From contig CAVXTW010000015.1 of assembly GCA_963764695.1 (NCBI GenBank), positions 285,845 to 349,844 on the forward strand: a stretch of DNA of 64,000 bases. Reading direction: 5' to 3'. This stretch comes from an uncultured delta proteobacterium. GTDB lineage: Bacteria > Myxococcota_A > Polyangia > Haliangiales > Haliangiaceae. Position numbers and translations under genes: made by a program. Of the stretch, positions 23,173 through 24,049 are shown one piece after another; position 1 is the first letter of the stretch; every line of letters begins with the position of its first letter. The notes under the pieces are model-generated. The model ran no database searches. It saw only the letters and a program-made list of their open reading frames with translations, and was not told where the DNA came from.

Positions 23173-23340
23173 ATGACGACCGAGACCAGGACCGAGAAGA
23201 CCGAGACCACGAAGGGTGTCGAGAACGACTGTCGCTGCGCGAGCGCCGGGTGTGGCTGCTCGGCCTCCGACGCCAGCTGCCCCTGCGGGTCCGCCTGCCT
23301 GTGCCGCGAGTGCCGCTGCGACGTCTGCCGTTGCGCCTGA
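23173..23340 (+). CDS. Metallothionein-like small Cys-rich protein (55 aa, 12 Cys, CxC/CxxC motifs), below the ORF-track length cutoff
   Basis: GAGGAG RBS 6 nt upstream. Sequence MTTETRTEKTETTKGVENDCRCASAGCGCSASDASCPCGSACLCRECRCDVCRCA. Lies 53 nt upstream of the ECF sigma factor gene. Confidence 0.55.
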   Translation: MTTETRTEKTETTKGVENDCRCASAGCGCSASDASCPCGSACLCRECRCDVCRCA

Positions 23341-23392
23341 CGCCGGACGCAAGGGCGCGAATTTACGCGGGGCGCGTGAACGATTTCGTGTA

Positions 23393-24049
23393 ATGGCGGG
23401 CGCGCGGCCGCGTCGAGCGGTAGTAGCCGTGGACGATCCCGTGACCGACTCCGATCCCGACAACGAGACACAGAATGCGGCGACCCCCGGCGGCGGCGTG
23501 CCGACCGCCGAGGTGGTCGCGACGCTTGTCGCGAGCCATCGCGAGTTCCTCGCCTTCGTGCAGCGGCGGGTCGGCGGCGACCGCGCGCTCGCCGAGGACA
23601 TCGTGCAGGAGGCTCTCGTGCGCAGCGTCGAGCGCGCGGGCGAGATCCGCGAGTCGGCGGTCGGCTGGTTCTATCGGATGCTGCGCAACGCGATCATCGA
23701 TCGTTCGCGGCGTGCGGCGGTCGCGCGGCAGCGACTCGACGCGCTCGCTGCGGAGCTCGACACCGTCGACGATCCCGAGCTGGAGAACGTCGTCTGTCGC
23801 TGCGTCGGCGAGCTCGCGAGCACGCTCAAGCCGGAGTACGCCGACGCGCTCCGCAAGGTCAACGTGGACGGCATGGCGGTGAAGGACTACGCGGCCGACG
23901 CTGGCATCACGGCGAGCAATGCCGGCGTGCGGGTGTTCCGCGCGCGCGCCGCGCTGCGCGAGCAAGTCGCGCGGGCGTGCGGGACGTGCGCGACGCACGG
24001 CTGCGTCGACTGCACGTGCCATGCGCGCACCCCGTCGTCCGGGCAGTAG
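23393..24049 (+). CDS. ECF sigma factor with C-terminal Cys-rich extension (CorE-like, ECF44-type)
   Basis: Sigma-70 region 2 (FYRMLRNAIIDRSRR) and region 4 (VKDYAADAGITASNAGVRVFRARAALRE), plus a CxC...C...CVDCTC tail. No anti-sigma gene downstream. Start taken at the first ATG and could be further downstream. Confidence 0.8.
   Translation: MAGARPRRAVVAVDDPVTDSDPDNETQNAATPGGGVPTAEVVATLVASHREFLAFVQRRVGGDRALAEDIVQEALVRSVERAGEIRESAVGWFYRMLRNAIIDRSRRAAVARQRLDALAAELDTVDDPELENVVCRCVGELASTLKPEYADALRKVNVDGMAVKDYAADAGITASNAGVRVFRARAALREQVARACGTCATHGCVDCTCHARTPSSGQ

Follow-up and report, generated by a model that had tools for sequence, protein, structure and literature searches.

A metallothionein-like mini-protein gene and a CorE-like sigma factor gene sharing a promoter motif: a probable sense-and-buffer module in a Haliangiaceae genome

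The locus and its components

The subject of this analysis is a small locus on the forward strand of contig CAVXTW010000015.1, which belongs to the genome of an uncultured delta proteobacterium assigned to the Haliangiaceae. The whole stretch of DNA that was analysed, hereafter the window, comprises 64,000 nucleotides (nt). Within this window an unannotated gene encoding a metallothionein-like mini-protein is followed on the same strand by a gene encoding an extracytoplasmic function (ECF) sigma factor, and each of the two genes is preceded by one copy of the same ECF-type promoter motif. Related loci that were used for comparison are referred to by L numbers.

The open reading frame (ORF) at positions 23173-23340 (+) specifies a peptide of 55 amino acids (aa), MTTETRTEKTETTKGVENDCRCASAGCGCSASDASCPCGSACLCRECRCDVCRCA, with 12 Cys residues forming six CxC pairs, two CxC pairs being joined by CxxC spacings. 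The peptide is devoid of His, Phe, Trp and Tyr. The share of Cys amounts to 22% of the entire peptide and to 33% of its last 36 aa, whereas the N-terminal 19 aa represent a hydrophilic tail rich in Thr, Glu and Lys. Low mass, a high Cys share, the lack of aromatic residues and the presence of CxC/CxxC motifs are the operational features of metallothioneins, and all of them were found in the deduced peptide. A ribosome binding site, GAGGAG, occupies 23161-23166 and is separated from the ATG by 6 nt; no start codon occurs between the preceding in-frame stop and ATG 23173. The position of this ATG is moreover fixed by a 1-nt indel just 5' of the small ORF in L001, since this indel disrupts the upstream frame. 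A preliminary description of the region had reported a 55-aa ORF with 12 Cys, no His and a strong ribosome binding site and had termed it metallothionein-like; these statements proved correct with regard to both composition and translation signals, and the ORF turned out to be a conserved gene. The same description had delimited the unit as 23173-24049, an interval that contains both genes, but the unit begins further upstream with the promoter at 23101.

A search of all six reading frames identified the small ORF as the region of highest Cys density in the window (12 Cys in 36 aa, six CxC pairs), followed by an Arg-rich off-frame stretch containing 9 Cys and a single CxC. The GC content of third codon positions (GC3) is 0.91 for the small ORF and 0.90 for the sigma factor gene, compared with 0.53-0.78 for the overlapping alternative frames. 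The small ORF is accordingly a real gene and more than a chance product of GC-rich DNA.

Competing gene models at this position were rejected. A long ORF at 23216-24049, in which the sigma factor is extended N-terminally over the small ORF, has a GC3 of 0.54 across 23216-23428, includes the second promoter and shows non-synonymous substitutions in this part; the antisense ORFs at 23071-23601 and 23148-23471 have GC3 values of 0.66-0.78. The former, which is the maximal sigma ORF, overlaps the peptide ORF in a different frame and thereby masks it. A similar situation was observed in L168, where the called 198-aa sigma factor (4001-4597) masks an ORF of 51 aa with 12 Cys (3921-4076), the TGA of which overlaps the real ATG of the sigma gene.

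Conservation of the peptide and searches for related families

Orthologues of the peptide were detected in L001, with 95% identity, and in L162/L163, with 76% identity, the length of 55 codons and 12 of 12 Cys being kept; the sigma factors of L162/L163 are 84-88% identical to that of the window. Among these close orthologues a single Cys codon shows a synonymous difference (TGT to TGC). The proportions of non-synonymous (pN) and synonymous (pS) changes in the Cys region are 0.096 and 0.32, respectively, resulting in a pN/pS ratio of 0.30. The N-terminal tail of 19 aa evolves freely, with pN exceeding pS. Homologues of 51-52 aa with 41-56% identity and the same 12-Cys register are present in L167, L168, L082 and L083; those of L167 and L168 share 54-56% identity with the window peptide and have kept all 12 Cys. 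A set of 26 peptides, the shortest of which comprise 21-27 aa, has only the core CxC-x3/4-CxC-x3-CxC in common.

The 55-aa peptide matched no family in Pfam or NCBIfam. The profile Metallothio_Pro (PF02069) was not matched by the window peptide or by nine of its relatives at E values up to 10, and the eukaryotic metallothionein profiles (PF00131, PF01439 and PF12749) were not matched by the window peptide. Sister peptides yielded faint matches to Metallothio_Euk and Metallothio_2 that remained below the threshold, the best having an E value of 0.014 and a score of 15.8 bits versus a cut-off of 22. Both a phmmer search of 1.84 billion representatives and a word-index search with the peptide retrieved only the near-identical sequence P0001, and a profile built from the 26 peptides retrieved nothing at E <= 1e-3. 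An exact look-up of 20 peptides in a collection of 15 billion proteins recovered two of them, one annotated as 'hypothetical protein' and one unnamed. The nearest matches in the PDB were beta domains of mammalian metallothionein MT-2, which have a near-identical Cys spacing; the E value of 0.3 is not significant, and this likeness is therefore a resemblance of pattern rather than demonstrated homology. Judged by its sequence, the peptide appears to be metallothionein-like in kind and to stand outside the described bacterial families, as the SmtA/BmtA profile was unmatched and homology to MymT was undetectable.

The sigma factor gene

The downstream gene (23429-24049, +) encodes an ECF sigma factor of 206 aa when translation is assumed to start at GTG 23429. 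The protein contains the domains sigma2 (Sigma70_r2, E = 2.8e-11) and sigma4.2 (Sigma70_r4_2, E = 9.7e-5, just under the Pfam cut-off) and no others, and its score of 52.3 with TIGR02937 (sigma70-ECF) is above the cut-off of 42.9. The best NCBIfam model is SigZ, with 78.5 bits and thus under its cut-off of 168.65. A total of 5323 homologues were found, the nearest of which are 70-94% identical and originate from Myxococcota-type metagenome-assembled genomes (MAGs) and soil metagenomes.

An alignment of the window protein with 31 homologues (61-94% identity) revealed two Cys-containing elements. The first is a CxC in the linker between sigma2 and sigma4, Cys123-Arg-Cys125 within VVCRCV (23795-23803, +), which is invariant in the 32 aligned family members. 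The second is the core of a C-terminal Cys-rich domain, C184-G-T-C187-A188-T-H190-G-C192-V-D-C195-T-C197 (23978-24019, +), which is part of the C-terminal motif CGTCATHGCVDCTC. In this core C184, C187, A188, H190, C192, D194, C195 and C197 are invariant in all 32 members, so that the pattern CGTCAxHxCxDCxC is common to the aligned relatives. With the spacing C184-x2-C187-x4-C192-x2-C195-x-C197, the last four Cys match C173-x4-C178-x2-C181-x-C183 of CorE2 as judged by the published numbering, not by an alignment with CorE2 (PMC4937300).

The hallmarks of ECF44 or CorE-like factors are the domains sigma2 and sigma4.2, a linker CxC and a C-terminal Cys-rich domain, without a co-encoded anti-sigma factor (PMC4937300, PMC6851896, PMC8999054). 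The Cys-rich domain of these factors spans 21-50 aa and contains four conserved Cys together with the Cys that corresponds to C189 of CorE and C178 of CorE2. The linker CxC is strictly conserved across ECF44 (PMC6851896) and essential in CorE2 (PMC4937300), and in CorE-like factors both the linker CxC and the C-terminal Cys-rich domain are essential (PMC4937300, PMC6851896, PMC8999054). ECF44 has meanwhile been merged into ECF238 together with SigZ of B. subtilis (PMC7826278). The defining features support a placement of the window sigma factor among the CorE-like factors (ECF44/ECF238), with which the sub-threshold match to SigZ is consistent, though not decisive. The CorE-type architecture proposed previously was thus recovered with all of its published features, including the C-terminal Cys-rich extension, here represented by the C184-C197 core.

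The sigma factor gene is flanked by genes for an alpha/beta hydrolase and a secreted cupin, and no protein with an anti-sigma domain is encoded next to it in the window. The flanking genes differ among L001, L163, L164, L167 and L168; a conserved anti-sigma partner is therefore lacking, and the earlier statement that such a partner is missing applies to the locus, although an anti-sigma factor might still be encoded elsewhere in the genome. The downstream ChrR-cupin-like protein was considered as an anti-sigma factor and rejected, as it consists only of a signal peptide or transmembrane segment and a cupin domain and is not conserved in L164. Its gene (24065-24544, -), convergent to the sigma gene, specifies a secreted cupin of the ChrR-cupin-like/DUF4437 type that has no anti-sigma domain; in L164 it does not lie beside the sigma gene. 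The next gene (24812-25138, +) encodes a small secreted Cys-containing protein without a family match.

The ECF sigma factor had been placed 53 nt downstream of the small ORF, that is with a start at ATG 23393. The sigma factor is indeed present, whereas this start is probably wrong. The codon at 23429 is ATG in L001, L163 and L164, the four substitutions in the interval from 23393 to 23429 are without exception non-synonymous in the sigma frame, and ATG 23393 lies inside the conserved -35 element TGTAATG. For these reasons, and in agreement with the lengths of the homologues, GTG 23429 is most likely the true start. The N-terminal tail of the window sigma factor is acidic and free of His. Close relatives (P0007, P0090, P0070 and P0096) have His-rich N-terminal tails such as HHHDHDH, EHEHEREREHEHE and MHDHEH, which may represent an additional metal-binding segment.

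Promoter motif, leader and spacer

The pattern TGTAAT-N16-CGTC occurs exactly twice in the 64 kb of the window, both times on the forward strand and once before each of the two genes, versus 0.00 copies expected from shuffled sequences. A relaxed version of the pattern identified no further relevant site in the window. The first promoter, P1 (23101-23126, +), precedes the small ORF; its -35 element TGTAAT(G) (23101-23107) and its -10 element CGTC (23123-23126) enclose a spacer of 16 nt. The second promoter, P2 (23389-23414, +), precedes the sigma factor gene. Sequence homology with L001 starts at P1. In the relatives, P2 takes the form CGTAATG-N15-CGTC (L163, L164) or retains TGTAATG (L001, L165). 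The motif has the architecture expected for a cognate promoter of the sigma factor and is the likely candidate for this role on comparative grounds.

The 5' leader of the small ORF (23127-23172, +) contains a possible hairpin (23139-23143/23151-23155) ahead of the ribosome binding site; it is 94-95% conserved in L001 and also conserved in L163 and L167. The leaders of CxC-peptide genes mostly measure 43-51 nt, in at least 13 loci. A GC hairpin of 5-8 bp was observed at a similar position in the window and in L082, L083, L084, L091, L094, L127, L131, L162 and L167, preceded by a semi-conserved motif G(G/T)TGAAG / CGAA. The hairpin sequences differ among the loci, and the z-scores of their minimum free energies against shuffled sequences are weak, with a mean of about -0.8. 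The spacer between the peptide gene and P2 (23341-23388, +) is a region of variable length in the relatives, with about 180 nt in L163, 27 nt in L167 and an ATGA overlap in L168. AT-rich palindromic patches stand out from the surrounding 70% GC both after P1 (GCGCGAATTCAGCGC, 23141-23155) and in the spacer before P2 (GCGCGAATTTACGCG, 23354-23368), and in L163/L164 the sequence CGAAATTTCG adjoins the -35 element of P2. Possible roles of these patches are those of an RNA hairpin, an UP-like element or the operator for an additional regulator. A search with Rfam of 22900-24200 provided only chance-level matches, and scans for sigma70 promoters and intrinsic terminators found none.

Recurrent association of CxC-ORFs and sigma factor genes

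ORFs of 18-90 aa were counted as CxC-ORFs if they contained 6 or more Cys and 3 or more CxC and if Cys made up at least 15% of their residues; the family set consisted of 60 loci with sigma factor relatives that have the same C-terminal motif and 29-72% identity. Of the 60 family loci, 20 have a CxC-ORF no more than 600 nt from the sigma gene, versus none of 83 loci with non-family ECF sigma factors (Fisher p = 3e-9); 55 of these 83 control loci have a GC content above 0.6. The distant flanks of the family loci contain 3 CxC-ORFs in 158 kb. The fraction of one third is a lower bound because many family contigs end near the sigma gene. Further cases of the association were noted in L008 (an Acidobacteria MAG), L162/L163, L167 (a Myxococcales MAG) and L168.

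The peptide gene is mostly found directly 5' of the sigma gene on the same strand, up to the overlap of its stop codon with the sigma start (ATGA) in L168. It is oriented divergently in L082, L083, L094 and L098, located downstream in L084, L093 and L116, and 1.7 kb away in L086. This varied placement speaks against a role as leader peptide or upstream ORF and in favour of a gene that stands on its own within the same regulon.

The promoter motif was matched 32 times in 247 kb of family loci and not once in the 578 kb that surround genes of other ECF sigma factors (p ~ 2e-17). Its consensus in the family extends to TGTAATG ... (G)CGTC(A), and it is always located on the correct strand, 7-53 nt before a start codon. 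The motif stands 20-51 nt before CxC-ORFs in at least 20 loci and likewise before copper genes. The latter include P1B ATPases passing TIGR01511 (scores 591-593, cut-off 397), which score best as CopA; further genes behind the motif encode a CopZ-like HMA protein, a cupredoxin-like protein, HMBD proteins, a His-rich peptide and the sigma factor itself. The experimentally determined CorE regulon comprises copA, copB, cuoB, the gene for an HMA protein and, in part, corE (PMC3107203), and the gene set behind the family motif is parallel to it.

Additional small genes were observed in the same context. Free-standing YHS-domain mini-proteins of 47 aa (MEKDVVCGMQVDPAKA...YYFC...) are encoded directly behind TGTAATG-N15-CGT(C/T) in L100 (4559-), L119 (473-), L122 (7788-) and L137 (3496-) and are likely to be another small and easily missed member of the regulon. 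In L137 (3572-) a 108-aa CopZ-like HMA protein has the C-terminal tail CSCGCCGPSK, and in L128 (2959-3546) an upstream ORF contains CCC triplets (TCCCVEREGKTHC...AECCCT); the two products possibly add to the Cys-rich metal binders of the regulon. Genes for DUF326 proteins, which are Csp-like four-helix bundles with CxxxC repeats, lie beside the sigma gene in L002 (4567-5361, -) and L126 (3406-4038, -). In these two loci no CxC-peptide gene lies closer than 600 nt to the sigma gene, which suggests that the storage solutions are possibly interchangeable.

A probable sense-and-buffer module

Taken together, the two-gene unit is probably a self-contained and autoregulated module for metal sensing and metal buffering that responds most likely to copper. 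The compact module of this kind that the preliminary description had envisaged gains support from the shared promoter motif and from the association found in 20 of 60 family loci versus 0 of 83 control loci. We infer that the peptide binds metal and that the sigma factor is activated by it. According to the mechanism known from CorE and CorE2 (PMC3107203, PMC4937300, PMC6851896), metal would be bound by the linker CxC and the C-terminal Cys/His cluster of the sigma factor, and only then would RNA polymerase be directed to the promoters. P1 would drive expression of the 12-Cys peptide and P2 that of the sigma gene, which would result in positive autoregulation. Excess metal would be sequestered by the peptide, which would serve in the cytoplasm as a metallothionein-like thiolate buffer; as free metal drops, the sigma factor would lose its metal and the module would be switched off by negative feedback.

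The metal is most likely copper. This assignment is favoured by Ala188, by the copper-type regulon in related loci, by the DUF326/Csp-like stores beside sigma genes and by the His-free and CxC-rich nature of the peptide. Ala188 is invariant, directly follows the second Cys of the Cys-rich domain and corresponds to A185 of CorE via the published numbering. CorE2 has C174 at this position, and an exchange of the residue swaps the specificity between copper and cadmium/zinc (PMC4937300, PMC6851896).

Several points weigh against this interpretation. The identity of the metal is its weakest link, because the residue correspondence was deduced from published numbering; the copper call thus draws on other loci and on this deduced match, not on an alignment with CorE and CorE2. 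CorE is also weakly responsive to cadmium and zinc (PMC3107203). Autoregulation in the present case would set the module apart from CorE2, which lacks it, and from CorE, in which it is partial (PMC4937300). The promoter was assigned by comparison of loci. Unusually, the mRNA derived from P2 would lack a Shine-Dalgarno sequence and have a leader of only 7-9 nt up to GTG 23429; the ATG of the relatives is found at the same distance, and translation of the sigma factor may be near-leaderless or dependent on read-through from P1. Finally, the profile, protein and structure searches revealed no statistically significant similarity of the peptide to any known metallothionein, and only about one in three family loci has the peptide gene beside the sigma gene.

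An alternative is that the same architecture responds to zinc or cadmium, as in CorE2, with the peptide acting as a Zn/Cd-thionein. The Cys spacing of the peptide equals that of the mammalian metallothionein beta domain, a Zn/Cd binder, the 64-kb window does not contain a copper gene, and CorE2 senses cadmium and zinc, by both of which CorE is weakly induced (PMC4937300, PMC3107203). We nevertheless consider this alternative unlikely, if the most serious one: the Ala after the second Cys of the Cys-rich domain is invariant as in CorE, whereas CorE2 has a Cys there and the swap changes the specificity (PMC4937300, PMC6851896). The ATPases behind the same promoter score best as CopA/copper-type, the YHS, CopZ-like, cupredoxin and Csp-like neighbours suggest copper, and the absence of His from the peptide is typical of Cu(I)-thioneins. 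A wider generalisation has to be regarded as doubtful, namely that in several phyla (Myxococcota, Acidobacteriota and Eisenbacteria) CorE-like sigma factors are accompanied by an unannotated CxC mini-metallothionein of 21-58 aa expressed from the sigma factor's own promoter TGTAATG-N15-CGTC, which, in addition to buffering copper, acts as a metal sink that draws the activating metal away from the sensor of the sigma factor and so takes the place of an anti-sigma factor. Somewhat less probable still is a chiefly regulatory peptide that competes for or strips metal from the Cys-rich domain of the sigma factor, or loads it as a chaperone, and in this way resets the sensor as a substitute for the missing anti-sigma factor. 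CorE-like factors do operate without an anti-sigma factor (PMC4937300), and the peptide gene is the sole conserved neighbour of the sigma gene, being adjacent to it in at least 20 loci and even overlapping it by ATGA in L168. On the other hand, it may be divergent, convergent or 1.7 kb distant and is missing beside two thirds of the relatives; the non-Cys residues of the peptide are not conserved, so that a protein-protein interface is not evident, and the zinc-binding anti-sigma (ZAS) motif HxxxCxxC is absent from a peptide that has no His and no Pfam match. The DUF326/Csp-type proteins beside the sigma gene in two peptide-less loci fit storage better.

The remaining alternatives concern the nature of the small ORF itself. 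Its shortness, its high Cys content and the fast-evolving, hydrophilic and leader-like N-terminal 19 aa would be compatible with the precursor of a modified or secreted peptide, for example a peptide made on ribosomes and then modified (RiPP) or a chalkophore. This is very improbable in view of the many family members of just 21-27 aa, which are nearly leaderless, and of the neighbourhood, in which no conserved gene for a maturase, radical-SAM protein, protease or exporter adjoins the ORF and the flanks differ in every relative. An untranslated ORF, present by chance or as a Cys-codon leader or attenuator of the sigma gene, might be suspected for a very short ORF upstream of a regulator and without a database family, but is hardly credible. 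The GC3 of 0.91, the strong ribosome binding site, the conserved length of 55 codons and the Cys codons kept despite synonymous changes all contradict it, as do the ORF's own promoter and the lack of a terminator or antiterminator; homologous genes divergent from or downstream of the sigma gene elsewhere are incompatible with a leader. The interpretation as a probably copper-responsive sense-and-buffer module remains the preferred one.

Novelty and implications

Sigma factors of the CorE-like kind are already known, whereas the peptide family and its control by an ECF sigma factor appear to be unreported in the literature searched. No link between a bacterial metallothionein and an ECF sigma factor was found there, and the ECF44/ECF238 literature that was checked does not mention metallothioneins; publications naming metallothionein, CorE, Myxococcus and sigma factor apparently draw no link between them. 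Bacterial metallothioneins have been reviewed as rare and as represented essentially by SmtA/BmtA and MymT (PMC7558416). The present data point to a further, sequence-diverse family of bacterial mini-metallothionein-like peptides, which gene callers mostly miss or mask under mis-extended sigma ORFs. The peptides are seemingly common in soil Myxococcota, with single cases in MAGs of Acidobacteriota and Eisenbacteria. Moreover, a consensus for the promoter and a prediction of the copper regulon are obtained for a large CorE-like clade; the regulon would consist of the peptide, CopA, CopZ-like, YHS and Csp-like proteins and the sigma gene. With sensor, promoter and buffer encoded in about 950 bp, the unit is also a potential metal biosensor or sequestration cassette.

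Comparison with known systems

The closest known counterparts are CorE and CorE2 of Myxococcus xanthus (ECF44, now ECF238), which resemble the window sigma factor in the combination of sigma2 and sigma4.2, the linker CxC, the C-terminal Cys-rich domain, the lack of an anti-sigma factor and the presence of metal-homeostasis genes nearby. The Archangium locus L005, with genes for the sigma factor, a YHS protein, an outer-membrane efflux protein, a multicopper oxidase and a P1B ATPase, is similar to the CorE region (PMC3107203), and the P1B ATPases and the HMA protein in the regulon of the window sigma relatives have their parallels in CorE. The Cys-rich domains of CorE and CorE2 comprise 38 and 28 aa, respectively, whereas that of the window sigma factor is shorter, with about 23 aa, five Cys and an invariant His. 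A second, complete copy of the promoter hints at strong autoregulation here, whereas CorE is partly autoregulated and CorE2 is not, and a metallothionein-like direct target, as proposed here, is not listed for their regulons in the literature searched.

MymT of Mycobacterium tuberculosis is likewise the product of a small (4.9 kDa), originally unannotated Cys-rich ORF; it is copper-induced, with a predicted capacity of up to six Cu(I) (PMC7558416). In contrast to the proposed control of the window peptide, MymT is regulated by the CsoR-family repressor RicR and not by an ECF sigma factor (PMC10141476). Sequence similarity of MymT to the window peptide was not detectable in the phmmer search of 1.84 billion representatives or with the 26-peptide profile. 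MymT also contains His, which the window peptide lacks. SmtA/BmtA (PF02069) are comparable as small Cys-rich bacterial metal buffers with genes adjoining that of a metal sensor (SmtB). They differ by a zinc-finger-like fold with Cys and His ligands, an orientation towards zinc and control by an ArsR/SmtB repressor, whereas the window peptide has no His and no match to PF02069. Csp3/DUF326 proteins are cytosolic Cys-thiolate stores for Cu(I), as proposed for the CxC peptide, but they are folded four-helix bundles of 130-150 aa with CxxxC repeats and unrelated to it.

The CxC pattern of the peptide is almost superimposable on that of the vertebrate metallothionein beta domain, and the query segment GCGCSASDASCPCGSACLCRECRCDVCR aligns with human MT-2. 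Compared with this domain and with fungal copper metallothioneins, the window peptide has its 12 Cys in one block behind a hydrophilic N-terminal tail of 19 aa. A resemblance to the 25-aa copper metallothionein of Neurospora is seen in the shortest family members (21-27 aa, CxC-x3-CxC-x3-CxC). The likeness to vertebrate and fungal metallothioneins is most likely convergent.

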